Positions 2,489 through 46,509 of a stretch of DNA of 64,000 nt are shown piece by piece. The stretch comes from an uncultured virus (IMG/VR IMGVR_UViG_3300027834_000001) (taxonomy: Duplodnaviria > Heunggongvirae > Uroviricota > Caudoviricetes): the IMG/VR virus record IMGVR_UViG_3300027834_000001. The stretch is one strand, 5' to 3'. Below the pieces are notes generated by a model. The model had not been told where the DNA came from. It saw only the letters and a list, made by a program, of their open reading frames with translations, and did not search any database. How positions within the stretch are numbered: the first letter of the stretch is position 1; every line of letters starts with the position of its first letter. Both the position numbers and the translations under genes were made by a program.

Positions 2489-3319
2489 ATGGAACCGATC
2501 GAACTAATCTACGATAGCATGGAAGCCGTTCCGGCTGCTGTGAAAGGCCTCTACACTGAGAAGGATGGCAAGGCCGTTCTTACTGGTGTCGTAGGCATGA
2601 AGACCCAAGCGGACATCGACCGCATCCAGGAAGGTCTACGCAAAGAGCGTGAAGACCATGCCAAGACCAAAGCTGATCTCAAGCCATTCAAAGGCATGAA
2701 CGCTGCAGAGGTCCAGGAAAAACTCGACCGGATTGACGAACTGGAAGCAACGAACGGCGGTAAGCTGGATGAAGAGGCTATCAACAAGATTGTTGAAGGT
2801 CGTCTCAAGCAACAGACCGCTCCGCTCCAGCGCAAGATCGATGAACTGACTGATACCAATGCCACGCTGACCGCTGATAACGACAAGCTGACCGGGACTA
2901 TCTCGACTGGCTCGCGTAACGAAGCAGTCCGCAAAATCGCAGCCGAAATGAAGGTTCACGGCACTGCAATCGCAGACGTTGAACTGGTGGCAGCTAACTA
3001 CCTCGAGAAAGACGAAACCACTGGTAAGTGGATTGTCAAGGCTGATGCCGAAGGGGTGACTCCTGGATCTGACATCGGACAGTTCATGAAAGAGATGCAG
3101 AAACTGCGTCCTCACTGGTGGCCGAAATCTACTGGTGGCGGCGCTGGTGGTGGTCTCGACGGTGTCAATGGTGGCAAGAACCCCTTCTCGGGTGATAGCT
3201 GGAACTTGACCGAGCAAGGTGCGCTCATTCGCTCTGACCGCGAACTAGCCACTCAGCTCGCTACTGCGGCTGGGACAAGCATCGGTGGCGAACGCCCCGC
3301 TGCAACTCAGCAGAAATAA
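2489..3319 (+). CDS. Capsid scaffolding protein
   Basis: Coiled-coil protein ending in a GGGAGG linker and NPF...WNLTEQ. Lies immediately upstream of the major capsid gene. Confidence 0.8.
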   Translation: MEPIELIYDSMEAVPAAVKGLYTEKDGKAVLTGVVGMKTQADIDRIQEGLRKEREDHAKTKADLKPFKGMNAAEVQEKLDRIDELEATNGGKLDEEAINKIVEGRLKQQTAPLQRKIDELTDTNATLTADNDKLTGTISTGSRNEAVRKIAAEMKVHGTAIADVELVAANYLEKDETTGKWIVKADAEGVTPGSDIGQFMKEMQKLRPHWWPKSTGGGAGGGLDGVNGGKNPFSGDSWNLTEQGALIRSDRELATQLATAAGTSIGGERPAATQQK

Positions 3320-3456
3320 CCTGTTGCAATCTTCTGCAACTTGATGTAAACAACTTGTCATGCGCTTCCATGGGACGCGCCTGACATTCCGAACCTCGGC
3401 TGGTCATGGGACTAGCAATCTTCTAGCCATGAACATCTTAGGAAAGGACAAACTCC

Positions 3457-4500
3457 ATGGCCTCTGGACACACTTCAATCGCGGACATCGTCGTCCCCGA
3501 AATCTTCACTCCTTACGCTTTGAAGGAAACTGAAGAAAAATCTCGCCTTATCCGTTCTGGTGCCGTGGTCGCTGATGGCGAAATGGCTGACATGCTGAAT
3601 GGCGGCGGTCTTACCTTCAATATGCCGACCTATGACGACCTGGACAACGACGTTGAACGCGTCGCTGATGAAAGTGTTCGCAATACCTTCACTGGCGGTG
3701 TGGTCGATCCCACTCCAAACAAAATCGGCACCTTCACAGAAGTCTCCGTTCGTCTGGAACGCAACAACTCTTGGACTGCAACCAAGCTGGCGAAGCTGAT
3801 GTCGGGCGATGACCCTGCCGCAGCCATCCAGTCGCGCGTTGCGGACTATTGGGTGCGTCGTCAGCAAGCCTGCTTCGTCAGTGTCGTGAACGGCATCTTC
3901 GCCGATAACGCTGCTGCTCCTGCTGGCACTGAGCACGTTCAGAACGACATGACCAATGACATCTCTGGCGTCGGTTACACTGCTGGCGTGACTGACTTCT
4001 CGGCCGAAGCCTTCGTCGACACTACGTTGACAATGGGCGACAGCATGGAAGATCTGTCCATGATCATGGTCCACTCGGTCGTCTACGCTCGTATGCTGAA
4101 GAACAACCTGATCGACTTCATCCCAGACAGTGTGAACGGCAACGCGATCACTGTCCCGACCTTCCTTGGTCGTGAAGTCATCGTTGACGACGGTCTGCCC
4201 GTCTCCGGCTCGATCTACGAAAGCTGGGTCTTCGGTGCAGGTGCTATCGTGTTCGCACAGGGCTCGCCTGACAAACCTACCGAGGTTGACAATCAGCCTG
4301 GAGCGGGTAACGGCGCTGGTCAGGAAATCCTCTACAACCGTGTCCGCTGGGGCTTCCACCCTAAAGGTCACGCGTATGATGGAGCAACTCCTGCTGGTGG
4401 TCCGAGCAACGCAGTCTTGGCCGCAGCGGCTTCGTGGAAGCGCGTCTTCCCTGAACGGAAGCAAATCAAGATTGCTCGCTTGATTTCTCGCGAAGCATAA
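3457..4500 (+). CDS. Major capsid protein
   Basis: 347 aa with TSIADIVVPEIFTPY N-terminus, PTFLGREVIVDD and W.RV...KQI.IA C-terminus. Strong RBS and a downstream terminator. Confidence 0.92.
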   Translation: MASGHTSIADIVVPEIFTPYALKETEEKSRLIRSGAVVADGEMADMLNGGGLTFNMPTYDDLDNDVERVADESVRNTFTGGVVDPTPNKIGTFTEVSVRLERNNSWTATKLAKLMSGDDPAAAIQSRVADYWVRRQQACFVSVVNGIFADNAAAPAGTEHVQNDMTNDISGVGYTAGVTDFSAEAFVDTTLTMGDSMEDLSMIMVHSVVYARMLKNNLIDFIPDSVNGNAITVPTFLGREVIVDDGLPVSGSIYESWVFGAGAIVFAQGSPDKPTEVDNQPGAGNGAGQEILYNRVRWGFHPKGHAYDGATPAGGPSNAVLAAAASWKRVFPERKQIKIARLISREA

Positions 4501-30336: not shown

Positions 30337-31053
30337 ATGGATATCAACTTCAACGACACCGCATATACTGAGGCCTCTCTGGCCGACATGTCCGTTGACG
30401 ATCTTCTGACCCTGCGCAATGAAGTGGCTGTCAGCCTCGGCGTCGCGGAAGTGAAGGGTTTCAAAGATCAGGCGGCTGGCGCTACTCAGACCTGGAAGGC
30501 ACTGCAACGCCACTCGAAGGCGGCTGCGAGCGCTGAAAAGAAAGCTGCAAAAGCGAAGGCTCCACCCAAGGAGCGTGGACTTGCCAAGTCGGCGGAAGCC
30601 AAGACGGTCAAGCGTCCGAACAAGAAAATGTTTTCTACCATTACCAAAACTGGCGAACACGACGGCACTCAGGGACGGACCCATCGCTGGCCGAACTACA
30701 AAGACGGCATGACCATCGTTGACGTGATCGAGACCGAAGGCACCGAGCCGTGGGACGTCTACAATTGGGCTGGTCAGGGTATCATGTCTGTGACCGAGCC
30801 GACCGACGAAGAGTTCGCAACTCGCAAGGCGGCATGGTACAAGAAGCACGGCCTGACCGATCCGGAAGCGGCGAAAGCTGCCAAGGCAAAGGAACGCGCC
30901 GAAGCCAAGGAAGCTCGCGAGAAGGCCGCTGCTGAGAAGAAAGCGGAACGCGAAGCTGCCAAGGAAGCCAAGGCCAAAGAACGGGCCGAAGCGAAAGCTG
31001 TCAAAGAAAAGGCCGCTGCTGACAAAGCTGCTGCGAAGGCCGCTGCTGAGTAA
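30337..31053 (+). CDS. Putative DNA-binding protein with Lys/Ala/Glu-rich tail
   Basis: YKDGMTI central domain and about 60 aa of AKAKERAEAK-type repeats. Coupled to the modification cluster. Confidence 0.7.
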   Translation: MDINFNDTAYTEASLADMSVDDLLTLRNEVAVSLGVAEVKGFKDQAAGATQTWKALQRHSKAAASAEKKAAKAKAPPKERGLAKSAEAKTVKRPNKKMFSTITKTGEHDGTQGRTHRWPNYKDGMTIVDVIETEGTEPWDVYNWAGQGIMSVTEPTDEEFATRKAAWYKKHGLTDPEAAKAAKAKERAEAKEAREKAAAEKKAEREAAKEAKAKERAEAKAVKEKAAADKAAAKAAAE

Positions 31054-31964
31054 TGGGCCTTGAAAAAGTCAATGCGTTCTTCAGCTTTGTTGAGGAACGC
31101 GAACAGATCCGTCTCCGAAAGGAGGCGGATTTGCCGTATCCCTGGACTGAAGACTCGATCCTCAGGGACTACAAATTCACCAACGTTCATCGGCATCATG
31201 ATAGGACAAGCCGTGAACTACGGGAGCAATTTTACGATCAACATCGTGGATCCTCCTGCAAAACTATTCTCATGAATGCCGCTACGTTCCGATATTTCGG
31301 GACGCATGAATTTGCCTCTGCTTTGGGCTGGACTGATTTCAAAGATATGGATGATGACCATTGGGAATGGGTGAAAGAACTTGCGGAAGATAGACTGGCA
31401 GACAAAGAACGTGTCTTCACGGGCGCATACGTTATCACGAACCAAGGCATCTCCGCCCCTAAGCAAGAAGTCGTGGTTGATTATTTTCTCAAGGCTCTTC
31501 AGAAGGCAGCCCCGGAAGTAGTCGGCATTGCAATCGATACTCAAAGCTGGGAGAAAGTTGCTGATCGTATGCGGTTGATCAATGGTTTCGGAGGTTCTGG
31601 CTTCATGACCAAAGAGATCTTGCTTGACACCACCTACACTAAATTCTGGGACAATATGGTTGATCATCCAAAGGACGGACAGTTTAGCTTCCCTGTTGAT
31701 TGGGATAGCTGGACACCCATTGGTCCTGGAGCGAGACGTGGTGCAGCACGGGTCAGCGGTGACGACGAAGCCAAGCCACTTAAGGAAGAAGCTGCTGGTG
31801 ATGTGATCGACGATCTGCTGTTCCAGCAAGACTTGTTTCTACCTGACGAATGGGATACTCTTGCGCCTCACGATATCCAGTTTCAGCTTTGTGAATTCGA
31901 CAAGTATGAGCGTGTTCGCTTGGGCCAAGGACGACCACGGTCTCGCTACAAAGCACCAAAGTAA
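31053..31964 (+). CDS. 5-hmdU DNA kinase family (aGPT-Pplase1-like)
   Basis: ERE.IR.RK, PWTEDSIL..YKFTNV.R..DR, GPGARRG and LCEFDKYER. Confidence 0.85.
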   Translation: MGLEKVNAFFSFVEEREQIRLRKEADLPYPWTEDSILRDYKFTNVHRHHDRTSRELREQFYDQHRGSSCKTILMNAATFRYFGTHEFASALGWTDFKDMDDDHWEWVKELAEDRLADKERVFTGAYVITNQGISAPKQEVVVDYFLKALQKAAPEVVGIAIDTQSWEKVADRMRLINGFGGSGFMTKEILLDTTYTKFWDNMVDHPKDGQFSFPVDWDSWTPIGPGARRGAARVSGDDEAKPLKEEAAGDVIDDLLFQQDLFLPDEWDTLAPHDIQFQLCEFDKYERVRLGQGRPRSRYKAPK

Positions 31965-32048
31965 TCTGGAAGAGGGCGACAAATAGCACTTGTCTTTTGC
32001 GCCCTCCGCCGCTATGCTGGCTAAACATAACCTTTCGGAGATAGCCAA

Positions 32049-33320
32049 ATGAAGATACTGGTTGCGCTTCACAAGTGCATGGACCTCGGCGGTATTATTG
32101 ATCATACCGAGCAACTCATAGGCGGTCTCCAAGACCTCGGCCATGATGTTCACCTCAAAGAACTCGTATGGGCGTTTCAAGCCCCTGCACAACGTAAGAC
32201 AGCAGACTGGAGCATCGGCCCAAGTGGCATTCCACATCACCAAGGAAAGGGCTGGAACTTTGATCGGAAGGATCGCATTCCTTATCGTGGTGGCGCTGCT
32301 CTATCAGGCGCAAAGCAACGGCTCGAGGCTTACGACCTCATCATTTGGACAATGCCAGTTCCAAGCAAGAACAAAGACAATCTCGGTAACGATGACTGGC
32401 CAGAGTTGTACGACCTTCCAAAGCGCGTTAAGCAGGTTGCATTCATCCATGACGGGAATGCAGTAAAGGGAGCAGGTCATCTGCTGGCTATCCAGGACCG
32501 CCTCTCTGGGCTGGCCTGTGTTCACCCGTGCGCCCTCAATGGTGCCACCTTTGCAGACGTGCCTCGCACCATGATTGTCAATCCTCAGCTGAACCCCGTG
32601 CGTCCTTACGCCAAGTGGGAACAGAAGTCTCCAGGTTTCGTAAACATGCAGACCTTCAAGGCGTGGAAACATGCTCACGAACTGGTGGAAGCAGTTCACT
32701 ATATGCAGCCGCGTGGAGCCGACGAGTTGCGCGAGATCGCTGGCTTGGGCATTGAATACCGCTACATGACCAGCGAGGACAAGTGCAAGGATGCCTACTT
32801 CCACGCCAATGGTGAGAAGTTCTGGGACGCTGCACTGAACAACGGCATGACCCACCACGATTATTGGGATAAAGACCAAGTTGACAACTATCTCAACGAA
32901 GCCCGTGTCTTGGTCGACCCGTCATGGTCCAACAATTATTCAAAAGTCGGCGGTCACTTTAACCGTGTGGCCGTGGATGCAATGATGCGCGGCTGTTGTG
33001 TCTTGGCTCGACAAAAAGGGATGGGTTCGGAGTTGTTCCAGTCTGGTGAACACTACATGGCTATCCCCGAGGATGCTGATGCTCAGGAATATGCTGACCT
33101 CGTTCAGTATGCTGGCGGCATCGCACCGAAAACGGCACAACGCATGATTGATGCGAACCGTGAACTCTTACCCATGTTTGATCGGAAGACAGTGGCGCAA
33201 CGTGTCATTGATCTGGCACATGGTGAGATCGAAGTGGAGGAAGTCCAAGGGACAGCCAGCCATGCAATGGAAACCAAGGTCGAGAATATGTTGTTCGACC
33301 ATTTCGGAGTACTACTATAA
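32049..33320 (+). CDS. GT-B glycosyltransferase, putative DNA-modifying
   Basis: MKILV...GGI...L..L..LGHDV, FIHD and LVDPS...FNRVAVDAMMRGC. Confidence 0.75.
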   Translation: MKILVALHKCMDLGGIIDHTEQLIGGLQDLGHDVHLKELVWAFQAPAQRKTADWSIGPSGIPHHQGKGWNFDRKDRIPYRGGAALSGAKQRLEAYDLIIWTMPVPSKNKDNLGNDDWPELYDLPKRVKQVAFIHDGNAVKGAGHLLAIQDRLSGLACVHPCALNGATFADVPRTMIVNPQLNPVRPYAKWEQKSPGFVNMQTFKAWKHAHELVEAVHYMQPRGADELREIAGLGIEYRYMTSEDKCKDAYFHANGEKFWDAALNNGMTHHDYWDKDQVDNYLNEARVLVDPSWSNNYSKVGGHFNRVAVDAMMRGCCVLARQKGMGSELFQSGEHYMAIPEDADAQEYADLVQYAGGIAPKTAQRMIDANRELLPMFDRKTVAQRVIDLAHGEIEVEEVQGTASHAMETKVENMLFDHFGVLL

Positions 33321-34330
33321 TGGATATTGTTTCAGTTCGCAACGTGGAGGAAGCCCTCATCTTGGGCACGAAGGTTGTCAACTCTGTTGGTGTGCGGCGA
33401 GACAGCCGCAACGGTCCTGTGAAGGTCATGCCAATGCCAGTGACCACGATCTACAGTCACCCAAAGGAACGCGTCATGTTCCTGCCGGATCGCGACTGCA
33501 ACCCATACTTCCACTTCATGGAATGCCTCTGGATGCTGTCCGGTCGCCGTGACGTTGCTTGGATTTCACAGTTTAGCAGCAACATCGCCAACTACTCCGA
33601 TGATGGGATCAACTTCCATGGTGCCTACGGTTATCGCTGGCGGAACCACTTTACTGAGCCGGACGACAAGAACAACGTTCTCGATCAACTGGCCACCATC
33701 GCTGAACTTCTCAAGAAGAACCCCGATGACCGCCGCACTGTTCTCCAAATGTGGGACGCAACTGTTGACCTCGGTTTGGATGGCAAGGACTTCCCTTGCA
33801 ACCTGATCATCACCTTCCGGATCAATCCGCAGGGCCACCTTGATATGACTGTGTTCAATCGCAGTAACGATATGGTCTGGGGAGCCTACGGGGCGAACGC
33901 TGTTCACATGTCCTTCCTGCAAGAAGTCATGGCTTCATGGGTCGGTGTGCCTGTCGGCAAATACTGGCAGATCAGCACCAACTTCCACGCCTATCTGAAC
34001 ACACTGGCCAAGGTGGAGTCAGTGATGGACCTCTCTGCTGGGTTCACACCATACGAGCTCGATGAAGTTGCACCGTTTCCAATCGTCAGTTCTGGTATTG
34101 ATCAGTGGCATTCTGACTTGGCTATGTTCATGGACGAAGGTGCCAACGCGATGGGATACACTGACCAATTCTTCAAGAAGGTGGCCGTGCCTATGCTGCA
34201 ATCGTGGCAAGCGTGGAAAGATCGAGAAGCCCCTGACTTCATGGACAGCGCCGCTTACTACGCTGACCGCATCGCAGCTTCCGACTGGCGCAAAGCCTGT
34301 GTGGAATGGCTGGAGCGTCGGGACGTATGA
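33320..34330 (+). CDS. Thymidylate synthase-fold enzyme, probable dUMP hydroxymethylase
   Basis: SRNG, NPYFHFME.LW.L.GR.D, GAYGYRW, DFPCN, NRSND..WG.YGAN and NFHAY. Confidence 0.85.
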   Translation: MDIVSVRNVEEALILGTKVVNSVGVRRDSRNGPVKVMPMPVTTIYSHPKERVMFLPDRDCNPYFHFMECLWMLSGRRDVAWISQFSSNIANYSDDGINFHGAYGYRWRNHFTEPDDKNNVLDQLATIAELLKKNPDDRRTVLQMWDATVDLGLDGKDFPCNLIITFRINPQGHLDMTVFNRSNDMVWGAYGANAVHMSFLQEVMASWVGVPVGKYWQISTNFHAYLNTLAKVESVMDLSAGFTPYELDEVAPFPIVSSGIDQWHSDLAMFMDEGANAMGYTDQFFKKVAVPMLQSWQAWKDREAPDFMDSAAYYADRIAASDWRKACVEWLERRDV

Positions 34331-34899
34331 GCAGCAATGGACCCATCTACGTTTTTAACTCAGATGTAGAGCGCATCAAATACTCTCGTGAAGCAGCATG
34401 TGTTCAGAGGACACATGCGGCTCCTGGGATCGGCGACCACTCAGTCGGGAAGCATAGCTTCAACATGGTCACAATGCTTCTGATCATGTGGCCAGAAGCG
34501 CCACGTGAACTGATCGTCGCCTGCATCAAACATGATCTCCCAGAGCGGACAACGGGTGACATGCCTCATCCAGCGAAGCGGGCTGGTATCCAGAACGATG
34601 AAGCCCAAGCGGAAGCAGAGTTCGACATCAACGAGGGCTTGTTCGGTATCCACGAAGAACACTATCTTCCGGACGAACTGAAACTCTGGCTCTCTGGGCT
34701 GGACATGCTCGAATTCTACTGCTATTGCCGTGATCAGTGGATGATGGGCAACCGTTCAATTGAGACCAAGCTTCAACAAGTTGAGGCAATCATGCTGAAG
34801 AGCCCGCACTTGTTTCCCATTGAGATCGTGAATATGTATTATGAGATCAAGGACCACGATTGGGCTCAGATGCCAGATATCGGGGGACGTGTGGAATGA
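34327..34899 (+). CDS. HD-domain 5'-deoxynucleotidase (YfbR-like)
   Basis: R.H...HSVGKHS, HDLPE..TGDMP.P.K and DMLE. Confidence 0.85.
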   Translation: MSSNGPIYVFNSDVERIKYSREAACVQRTHAAPGIGDHSVGKHSFNMVTMLLIMWPEAPRELIVACIKHDLPERTTGDMPHPAKRAGIQNDEAQAEAEFDINEGLFGIHEEHYLPDELKLWLSGLDMLEFYCYCRDQWMMGNRSIETKLQQVEAIMLKSPHLFPIEIVNMYYEIKDHDWAQMPDIGGRVE

Positions 34900-45264: not shown

Positions 45265-45296
45265 AGTTTGTCTTGCCCCGCGCCCGTGCGTAGTAT
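45259..45296 (+). promoter_or_regulatory. Phage promoter, AAATAGA-N2-TTGTCT-N17-TAGTAT (member of a family of ~16)
   Basis: Related -35 boxes at 23547, 25405, 30254, 31990, 39948, 43552, 46456, 47185, 48423, 50461, 51175, 51640, 53939, 54850 and 59421, each 17-18 bp from a TANNNT-type box. Confidence 0.8.
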
Positions 45297-45335: not shown

Positions 45336-46079
45336 ATGGCAAAACTCCATGAACTGTTGGCCGTGATGGCTGACACAACCAATGCCGCGCAAGCGGTGAC
45401 CAAGGAGACCAGCACGGTCTTTGCGAAGAAAGCGGAACACTTCCGCGGAGCATCCAAGACGGTTGCTTTCTTCGAGAGTTCACGCGAAGGTGAAAACACC
45501 ACCGAGAGCAAGCAAATGGTGACTACGGTCGCTGATAAGCTTGATCACGCCTTCAAATCTGTTGGTCGCCACTATGATGCTCTCCTGCAACTCGAAGAAG
45601 CCAATGGCCGTGCCAAGGCAGACCTCGTAGTTGACGGTACGACCATCATGAAGGACGTCCCTGCGACCTTCCTCTTGGGCATGGAGAGCCGCCTCAAAGC
45701 TGTCCGCGAAATGATCCTGGTCATTCCGACGCTGGAGATGTCAATCAAATGGACACCGGACGCCAACCTCGGCGAAGGGGTCTACCGTTCGGAAGCCACT
45801 GTGGCCATGAAAACTGAGAAGACGCTCAAGTCGCGCATCTTGGTGGAACCCACGAAGGAGCATCCGGCCCAAGTGGAGAAATGGAACGAAGACGTTCCTG
45901 TCGCCCGTATTGAAACAACGCACACTTCGAGCATGATTACGCCGCACGAGAAATCGGCCATGCTGCTTCGGTGTGACAAAATGATCTCTGCTGTGAAGAA
46001 GGCTCGCCAACGAGCGAACACTGTCGCGGTCACTGATCTGAGCATTGCCAAGGAGATCTTCGGATATATCCAAGGCTAA
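45336..46079 (+). CDS. Conserved uncharacterised helical protein linked to a downstream structured RNA
   Basis: KLHELLAV, AKADLVVDG..I.KDVPATFLL..E..L, T.EHPAQVE...EDVPV and AVK.AR.RAN match a widespread unknown family (recalled as DUF7873, unverified). Confidence 0.85.
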   Translation: MAKLHELLAVMADTTNAAQAVTKETSTVFAKKAEHFRGASKTVAFFESSREGENTTESKQMVTTVADKLDHAFKSVGRHYDALLQLEEANGRAKADLVVDGTTIMKDVPATFLLGMESRLKAVREMILVIPTLEMSIKWTPDANLGEGVYRSEATVAMKTEKTLKSRILVEPTKEHPAQVEKWNEDVPVARIETTHTSSMITPHEKSAMLLRCDKMISAVKKARQRANTVAVTDLSIAKEIFGYIQG

Positions 46080-46083
46080 ACTG

Positions 46084-46433
46084 ATCCCATAGGGGATAGA
46101 CTGAGACTGAGACTGAATTATGCGGGTGGAAAACTCCAAGGAGGTAATCAATTCCCGTAACTCATACTTGAGAGACTTATGCCCCTCAATGTGAGAAACG
46201 AAGTAACTGAAAGACGAGAGATCGCCTTGAAAATGAAGTCGCTGGTTCGAATCCAGTCCCGCCTACCAACACCCTTTCGTTGGACTGAGGGCGGGTAGCT
46301 CAGTGGTAGAGCGCGTTGATAAGAGTGAAGCGATCTCAGTGGTCTGAAAGTTGATCGGGTGCTGCTCTTGAATGAGCACTTGATTTTTAATCAAAGCAAC
46401 AGGGGTCGGTGGATAGGAACTTCCATCGGCCCC
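46084..46433 (+). ncRNA. Structured ncRNA with circularly permuted tRNA-like core
   Basis: The T-arm (46241-46257) and CCCGCCT-A-CCA (46258-46268) precede GGGCGGG-TA and the D-arm (46289-46312). Long flanking helices. RNA ends are approximate. Confidence 0.75.
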
Positions 46434-46509
46434 ACCTGCTTGGGACAAGTAGATGTTGTCATATGCCGCTTCGTGCTGTACTATAAAGGCTCAATAGTTA
46501 GGAGGCTAC

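Follow-up and report, generated by a model that had tools for sequence, protein, structure and literature searches.

What is a circularly permuted tRNA doing downstream of a protein gene in a phage genome, and do the RNA and the protein belong together? The window (the whole 64,000-nt stretch that we analysed) is the genome of a tailed phage and encodes head, tail and replication functions as well as thymidine modification. A cluster at 31053-34896, comprising 5-hmdU DNA kinase, glycosyltransferase, thymidylate-synthase-like and HD genes, suggests that the DNA of this phage may carry sugar-modified thymidine. The gene and RNA that concern us comprise the following features.

45268-45296, + strand: putative promoter-like site TTGTCT-17-TAGTAT, 5' of the gene, with a generic scanner score below threshold
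45336-46079, + strand: DUF7873 gene, 247 aa (Pfam PF25283, E 4e-72)
46092-46185, + strand: helix P1, formed by 46092-46098 and 46178-46185 with a bulged G46181; inside it lie repeat arrays and, at 46122-46158, a variable hairpin
46098-46115, + strand: repeat array, AGACTG three times, one U-N-A per 6 nt, candidate DUF7873 binding sites; the period of 6 is family-wide
46205-46352, + strand: rod leading to the head, including a 4-bp anticodon-stem analogue; covariation in seven close relatives
46236-46312, + strand: circularly permuted tRNA head, recognized from its sequence, matched by Rfam YrlA below the cut-off, and kept in 178/209 loci
46320-46328, + strand: two U-N-A units in an internal loop in the place of the anticodon loop; tandem U-N-A follows the D stem in 118/177 heads
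46363-46394, + strand: remnant of a standard-order tRNA with D-arm-like and anticodon-arm-like hairpins (loop TTTTTAA) and no T arm or CCA; covariation
46402-46433, + strand: terminal hairpin of 12 bp (stem 11-13 bp in 93/108 RNAs), whose loop base is complementary to N73 in 98/108 RNAs but not in this phage
46456-46484, + strand: putative promoter-like site TTGTCA-17-TACTAT of the next gene, bounding the module; found by the generic scanner and the motif set

The initial annotation placed this unit between two phage promoters. Both sites fit a motif, TTGWCW-17-TANWWT, that occurs five times on the + strand of the window, the 45268 and 46456 sites among them, but the generic scanner scored only the site at 46456. 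The 247-aa ORF noted earlier is present at 45336-46079 and is a member of Pfam DUF7873, as the PF25283 profile matches residues 1-246 with 243 bits against a cut-off of 27. Its predicted model (pLDDT 92) is a helical bundle with a long beta-hairpin at residues 155-198. The family alignment has 14 columns with at least 70% K/R, and in the model conserved basic residues sit on the long beta-hairpin and the last long helix; several polar residues (N90, E117, T132, Q179, K221, R224 and N228) are invariant or nearly so. Foldseek places Cas7/Csm3 in its top rows, but with E 2.4e-3 or worse, TM 0.14 and rmsd >20, while the best Z in a fold comparison (7.9) is to helical bundles; these fold searches gave no clear match and no recognisable catalytic or enzyme-like fold. 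Comparisons with PDB sequences, PHROGs, PADLOC and NCBIfam returned nothing clear, nor did a search of the ESM Atlas (best 0.81), and our literature search found no paper on DUF7873. An identity of DUF7873 with the “Rot” protein of Aravind was considered and set aside as less probable, since PMC7824862, in the part of its text available to us, uses ROT/TROVE as one name.

Is the RNA a regular companion of this protein? DUF7873 relatives form 2032 protein clusters at 50% identity and are found in 75 GenBank phage records, covering phages of at least eight host genera, as well as in 64/121 Streptomyces and 16/301 cyanobacterial genomes. We applied a strict head pattern to the 209 unique loci (out of 249 sequences) that have at least 450 nt of downstream sequence, and found a permuted head 3' of the gene in 178 of them (130 with one head, 46 with two and 2 with three), against 2/209 upstream and 0/209 on the reverse strand; the remaining 31 have no head by this pattern. 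The same held in a held-out set of non-redundant loci, where 76 of 95 have a head versus three in the upstream controls, so that the comparison of homologues proposed in the initial annotation came out in favour of a conserved downstream RNA. Six loci (L119, L133, L148, L150, L277 and L278) have a DUF7873 gene, but in the stretch inspected 3' of it no such RNA could be recognised. The reciprocal search, by RNA pattern alone, gave 97 unique matches, 21 of which are true permuted heads. Twelve of these have 1.4 kb of flank, and DUF7873 lies upstream in nine, several of them on contigs already in our set; the other three have neither the terminal clamp hairpin discussed below nor tandem repeats, and the remaining 9/21 heads are short-flanked. 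Permuted heads with no DUF7873 match or clamp hairpin were also seen at L457, L487, L516, L528 and L542; they mostly have C73, three of them (L487, L528 and L542) have TACAGCA upstream in common, and they are probably a separate family.

Neighbour clustering, with RtcB and nucleases included, revealed no recurrent neighbour gene beyond single lineages. Three of the eight GenBank phage loci viewed lie inside tRNA arrays, and in phage NiceHouse (L013, 4374-5246) a Band-7 gene is found two features 3' of the module within such an array. The earlier view of the gene and RNA as a dedicated module is thus sustained by its occurrence in bacteria and in phages that infect many different hosts, by the lack of a shared neighbour gene, and by its being largely independent of Ro60.

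This last point bears on the simplest alternative, in which the RNA is an ordinary YrlA Y RNA serving a host Ro60 and the DUF7873 gene is a mere neighbour. YrlA is the best Rfam match in the window (46219-46339, 39.3 bits, E 1.6e-6), relatives score 27.8-43.1 bits, and TROVE (Ro60) is encoded somewhere in 29 of 50 bacterial carriers (50 of 65 loci having been submitted). However, the score in the window falls below the Rfam gathering score of 69, so that the YrlA-like topology proposed earlier stands as a permuted module but not as a YrlA assignment. The Ro60 motif GNCGAA(N)G is not found 5' of the head in the window, and across the family it occurs in 10/182 heads against 4.8 expected. While a YrlA RNA would be expected within about 4 kb of Ro60, TROVE adjoins the module in 1/249 loci (flanks of up to 3-6 kb, some contigs being short) and is present in 3/47 virus records; the single adjoining gene is at L178, 4883-6574. 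Neither TROVE, SmpB nor RNA ligase has a match among the 65 window ORFs scanned (58 out of 101 with at least 120 aa, plus 7 further ORFs), which for these ORFs agrees with the earlier remark that the window has no Ro60 or SmpB. Since the linkage to DUF7873 also holds both ways, from gene to RNA and from RNA to gene, we regard an ordinary Y RNA as very improbable.

The architecture of the head itself agrees in every listed element with the permuted-tRNA core described earlier. The 3' half comes first, with the variable loop AAGTC at 46236-46240, the T arm at 46241-46257 and CCCGCCT-A-CCA at 46258-46268 (A73-CCA being 46265-46268), and is followed by a 20-nt linker and the 5' half, consisting of GGGCGGG at 46289-46295, TA, and the D arm at 46298-46312. 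The rod is built from helices 46205-08/46349-52, 46212-15/46342-45 and GAGATCGC/GCGATCTC (46218-46225/46330-46337), with the anticodon-stem analogue at 46232-35/46314-17. A 72-pair model is 95.6% paired across the window and six close relatives, and 31 of its pairs show double-sided changes, in line with the covariation asked for earlier. None of 500 shuffles reach the observed values, and slid controls reach at most 47.6%; this last comparison favours the model, as it was built on the sequence of the window. In 5' to 3' order, double-sided changes are found in 3/4, 1/4, 6/8 and 3/4 pairs of the rod helices; the AGAC/GTCT helix is the weakest in the seven-sequence alignment, at 64% paired. Taken together, the Rfam YrlA match, the RNA fold z-score of -3.18, the downstream occurrence in relatives and the covariation argue that the head in the window is not a product of chance. 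Helix P1 is invariant among the seven close relatives and thus shows no covariation there. It takes differing complementary forms in distant relatives (84/150 RNAs, in a heuristic search without a chance control that is indicative only), and an alternative local fold is predicted for its region. At L001 (3745-3830), an 85-nt structured extra insert separates the stop codon from the RNA; it is absent in the window and in L005. The window has no tRNA genes, and ARAGORN reports no tmRNA in it.

Could such an RNA be processed and charged like a tRNA? The acceptor stem is fully paired (7/7) in 221 of 231 heads, where the pattern itself demanded at least 6/7, and CCA is encoded in 61/71 viral, 36/52 metagenomic and 15/108 bacterial heads. 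The accessible part of a study of Mycobacterium smegmatis YrlA (PMC4201824) describes how RNase P cuts that RNA, which has a 7-bp stem, and how CCA is added to it, and by this precedent we infer that DUF7873-linked RNAs may be processed into two pieces. The initial annotation had gone further, with RNase P and 3' trimming releasing a two-piece RNA with an aminoacylatable CCA. The two-piece part remains plausible, given the 7-bp stems and the CCA of viral heads, but not a freely aminoacylatable working end, because NCC is predicted to be paired and acceptor identity drifts. Indeed, the 231 heads include 82 acceptor-end types, and G3-U70 occurs in only 10 of them (the window has G3-C70), which argues that no fixed amino-acid identity is kept. 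Both observations weigh on a tmRNA-like role, in which a charged head would enter stalled ribosomes codon-free, with DUF7873 acting like SmpB at the anticodon-position loop and the repeats possibly coding for a tag. The CCA encoded by most viral heads would suit it, as would weak matches of permuted tmRNA models to relatives and an anticodon-stem analogue of 4-6 bp that is followed by repeats at a nearly fixed distance. However, a complete D stem is retained, which the analogue follows in most heads, and SmpB has no match among the window ORFs scanned.

The terminal hairpin, which was correctly placed at 46402-46433 by the initial annotation while its role and the 6-nt repeats were passed over, tells more about the end of the head. 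A strong terminal hairpin is found in 112/150 RNAs, with a GG-N-W loop in 97, versus one for reversed loops. In 98 of 108 testable RNAs (70 by Watson-Crick pairing), the loop N and the discriminator of the last head are complementary; of the 150, 38 had no hairpin that qualified and 4 had no GG, and these were set aside. The mutual information between N73 and the loop is 1.03 bits, which 0/10000 shuffles reach, compared with at most 0.32 bits for the other positions from 66 to 77. In held-out loci, with 22 lacking a hairpin and 2 lacking GG left out, the complementarity holds in 51/52. Along the protein tree, 24 of 31 disjoint pairs, chosen greedily to differ at N73, are compensatory, and swapped loops would pair in only one. 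Where there are two heads, the loop pairs with the last one in 20/22; the first is not clamped and has A73 in 21/22, a feature that would again suit a tmRNA-like role, as the paired CCA of the last or sole head would not. Several copies from Streptomyces and cyanobacteria have lost the first head or keep it in degenerate form, and L012 (3870-3940) is an example of a two-headed RNA.

The complementarity between loop N and discriminator indicates that the RNA most likely clamps its own NCC end, and the best reading of these sequences is that 5'-GGN-3' would pair with N73-C74-C75, leaving A76 unpaired. The loop keeps its GG in the 35/108 RNAs with something other than CC encoded at nt 74-75; CT is encoded in 29/108, where a G-U pair could permit a kissing loop without processing. 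In the window, G46416-G46417 are the proposed partners of C75-C74 (46267, 46266). Although GGN-NCC covariation with the discriminator is family-wide, A46418 faces A73 here, and this third clamp pair is mismatched in the phage of the window and in 3/6 close relatives; the two remaining base pairs by themselves give only a weak interaction (-1.8 kcal/mol). Note here that A73 occurs together with loop GGA in the window and L007, and U73 with loop GGU in L001 and L005, so that each mismatches itself but would match the other pair. A role as a plain terminator was rejected, with a U-tract 3' of the hairpin in only 24/112.

If the RNA holds its own end, does it do so as a switch? Under such a sensor-effector arrangement, GGN-NCC pairing would act as a T-box-like switch in cis, in which the clamp opens when the tRNA end is charged, cleaved or modified, freeing or activating DUF7873, otherwise held inactive by the repeats, as in RNA-antitoxin systems. 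Type III toxin-antitoxin systems likewise combine a protein gene with a repeat-bearing RNA. A clamp of only three base pairs would be reversible, the module is solitary, phage-borne and patchy (as the Streptomyces and cyanobacterial counts above show), and T-boxes do sense charging via UGGN-NCCA pairing, according to the available text of PMC7583486. Against this, the base before the loop GG is A in 68/108 and U in only 12/108, which implies that A76 is not paired in T-box fashion; the U-tract past the hairpin is uncommon, and DUF7873 has neither a PADLOC or NCBIfam match nor a recognisable catalytic fold. We consider this switch doubtful, if still a serious contender. The ribosomal P loop, RNase P and flexizymes offer another precedent, as they hold NCC with A76 left free. 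The hairpin loop might similarly grip NCC in a catalytic particle that positions A76 for aminoacyl or nucleotidyl transfer, and the geometry fits, with three pairs, an unpaired A76 and a stem of nearly constant length (11-13 bp), as do the invariant or near-invariant polar residues of DUF7873. We find catalysis improbable, however, given that the third pair is lost in the clade of the window's phage and that neither substrate-related neighbour genes nor an enzyme-like fold match were found.

The second family-wide feature is the 6-nt U-N-A repeat. The flanks of 150 non-redundant RNAs have a period of 6 (autocorrelation 1.11 at lag 6 and 0.95 at lag 3), with 153 T.AG pairs at lag 6 against 10 when shuffled, and tandem U-N-A is found 3' of the D stem in 118/177 heads versus 23.5 expected from shuffles, mostly 8-9 nt past the stem. 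Read as codons, the repeats would give RLRLRL or KLKLKL, and such peptide coding was dismissed because of the codons used, the presence of stops in register and the distances between units. In 35 high-GC loci, AGA and AGG together number 56 against 10 CGN in the repeats, as opposed to 36 against 520 in the DUF7873 genes there; stops are in register in 30/792 units; and units are spaced 9 nt apart no more often than 7 or 8 nt, with no in-frame bias. These observations mark the repeats as RNA-level motifs. As the motif is partly palindromic, irregular duplexes could account for some of the signal. From the linkage and the conserved basic residues of the protein, we infer that DUF7873 binds the repeats, and a DUF7873-RNA complex is likely. 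The host-avoided codons, in-register stops and lack of an in-frame spacing preference also speak against a tag-coding function for the repeats. The tmRNA-like, charged-RNA idea is disfavoured and in our judgement unlikely.

The region between head and terminal hairpin was described earlier only as further hairpins. They are present, but are really the D-arm and anticodon-arm remnant of a tRNA in standard order, which had been missed: 3/5 pairs of the D-like and 3/4 of the anticodon-like hairpin covary among the seven close relatives. In one-headed relatives, an anticodon arm lies between head and hairpin in 50/109, with a T arm as well in 19 (counts without a chance control, and hence indicative). 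CCA is found in 0/19 of these fuller domains, and 23 different anticodons occur; this drift argues against decoding and against a fixed nuclease bait. An earlier proposal that the RNA is a decoy for anticodon nucleases also finds no support in the head, which has no anticodon loop to serve as bait. At two loci from GenBank phages (L010, 4191-4266, and L011, 4103-4175), the 3' domain is annotated as a real tRNA, though it lies within the module and has no CCA.

When might the module be expressed? An exact TrcR box (TGTAGTAT, either strand, at most 150 nt upstream) is found in 7/34 cyanobacterial loci versus 0.33 expected, and in 1/67 control windows; the other 27 loci are without an exact box, and the loci are mutually related. 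Three loci (L278, L287 and L119) have an exact or relaxed box and no RNA head downstream. TrcR represses rtcB and a tRNA array in normal growth, as stated in the available portions of PMC10272220 and PMC8421152. In four cyanobacterial loci (L270, L272, L276 and L279), the RNA lies 100-230 nt from the gene with promoter-like sequence ahead of it, and may therefore have its own promoter. RNA-seq contigs of Streptomyces relatives cover both gene and RNA. For L145, a single contig spans them in run X7, while in run X2 three short contigs over the 5' part of the RNA have depths of 2841-3820 and the ORF contig 44, a hint only, as contig depth cannot rank parts and carries no strand or ends.

How do these parts fit together? 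The architecture of the module is, on comparative grounds, well supported: a tRNA elbow and 7-bp acceptor stem on a rod, with U-N-A loops and a GGN terminal hairpin. The account that we put forward tentatively, as having a little less than an even chance of being right, is a stable, uncharged, self-clamped two-piece tRNA mimic coated by DUF7873 that serves as a decoy or scaffold when translation is under stress or RNA is damaged. The linker would be removed by host RNase P together with 3' maturation, either by trimming or by the addition of CCA, and the new NCCA end would dock on the terminal loop to give a ring, or an oligomer if docking occurs in trans. The closed clamp would keep the RNA uncharged, off the ribosome and resistant to exonucleases, while DUF7873 subunits would coat the repeats at about one per 6 nt. 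The resulting particle, which would be long-lived and produced in phage infection as well as under translation or RNA-damage stress, would display tRNA elbows that bind or soak up tRNA-directed enzymes, or would scaffold RNA repair or decay, and would thus work like Ro60-YrlA with other parts. The role of the particle is the weakest step in this account. A bolder combination, to which we give an appreciable but clearly minor chance, is an RNA-protein machine whose P-loop- or T-box-like GGN grips its own CCA, with the free A76 as switch or reactive centre and a DUF7873 polymer on the 6-nt repeats. If so, it would control that polymer by sensing the state of tRNA 3' ends or by bearing an activated amino acid, serving phage counter-defence and bacterial translation stress. 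The module is common, its covarying clamp pair is open to mutant-and-rescue experiments, and culturable carriers exist.

How far is this a known system? Our search of the literature and Rfam, whose reach left outside it the work of Burroughs and Aravind (2016), reportedly the source of the b7a-tRNA/Band-7 system, returned no description of a tRNA mimic that pairs with its own CCA and has 6-nt repeats and DUF7873. As far as the available text of 10.1101/312249 goes, b7a-tRNA resembles our module in being a predicted tRNA-like RNA with a non-Ro60 protein in RNA-repair contexts, but is like an authentic tRNA and lies near RtcB and Band-7, whereas DUF7873 is a protein other than Band-7 and does not recurrently adjoin RtcB. 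The Cas7/RAMP-like RNA-coating proteins in the top Foldseek rows are similar to DUF7873 only at the poor scores given above.

By the features tested, the DUF7873-linked RNA falls outside YrlA, tmRNA and T-box alike. The T-box antiterminator, in the accessible part of PMC7583486, shares the pairing of GGN with the NCC end of a tRNA and the match of N to the discriminator. It binds its tRNA in trans through a 7-nt bulge with UGGN, compared with a hairpin loop in the same RNA and a mostly unpaired A76 here, and has a specifier codon and a leader position, while our RNA has no specifier and lies downstream of its gene; the window has no Rfam T-box match. Two-piece tmRNA with SmpB (RF01850, RF04321) shares the permuted order, a removable linker, a CCA end, a similar size and a protein at the place of the anticodon arm, which for DUF7873 is our suggestion, but differs in that our RNA has no alanine identity, keeps the D stem, has no tag frame or SmpB, and has its end clamped. 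Closest is YrlA with Ro60/Rsr (RF02553; PMC4201824 and 10.1101/312249, in the text available), which has the same permuted order of T arm, acceptor and D arm, no anticodon loop and a long stem, adjoins a protein gene and, in M. smegmatis, is cut by RNase P and given CCA. Its partner is Ro60 and its length about 110-150 nt, as against DUF7873, about 350 nt and no Ro60 motif here, where we also see a 7-bp stem as the rule, an often encoded CCA, repeats, a single or double head, in some cases a tRNA-like domain at the 3' side, and a terminal loop predicted to pair with the NCC end. This comparison points to a head topology known from YrlA within a module that is, as a whole, undescribed. What is new here is the clamp pairing, the 6-nt U-N-A repeats, the rarity of an adjacent Ro60 and the cyanobacterial TrcR boxes, and the module thereby bears on what the tRNA-like heads of bacterial Y RNAs do.
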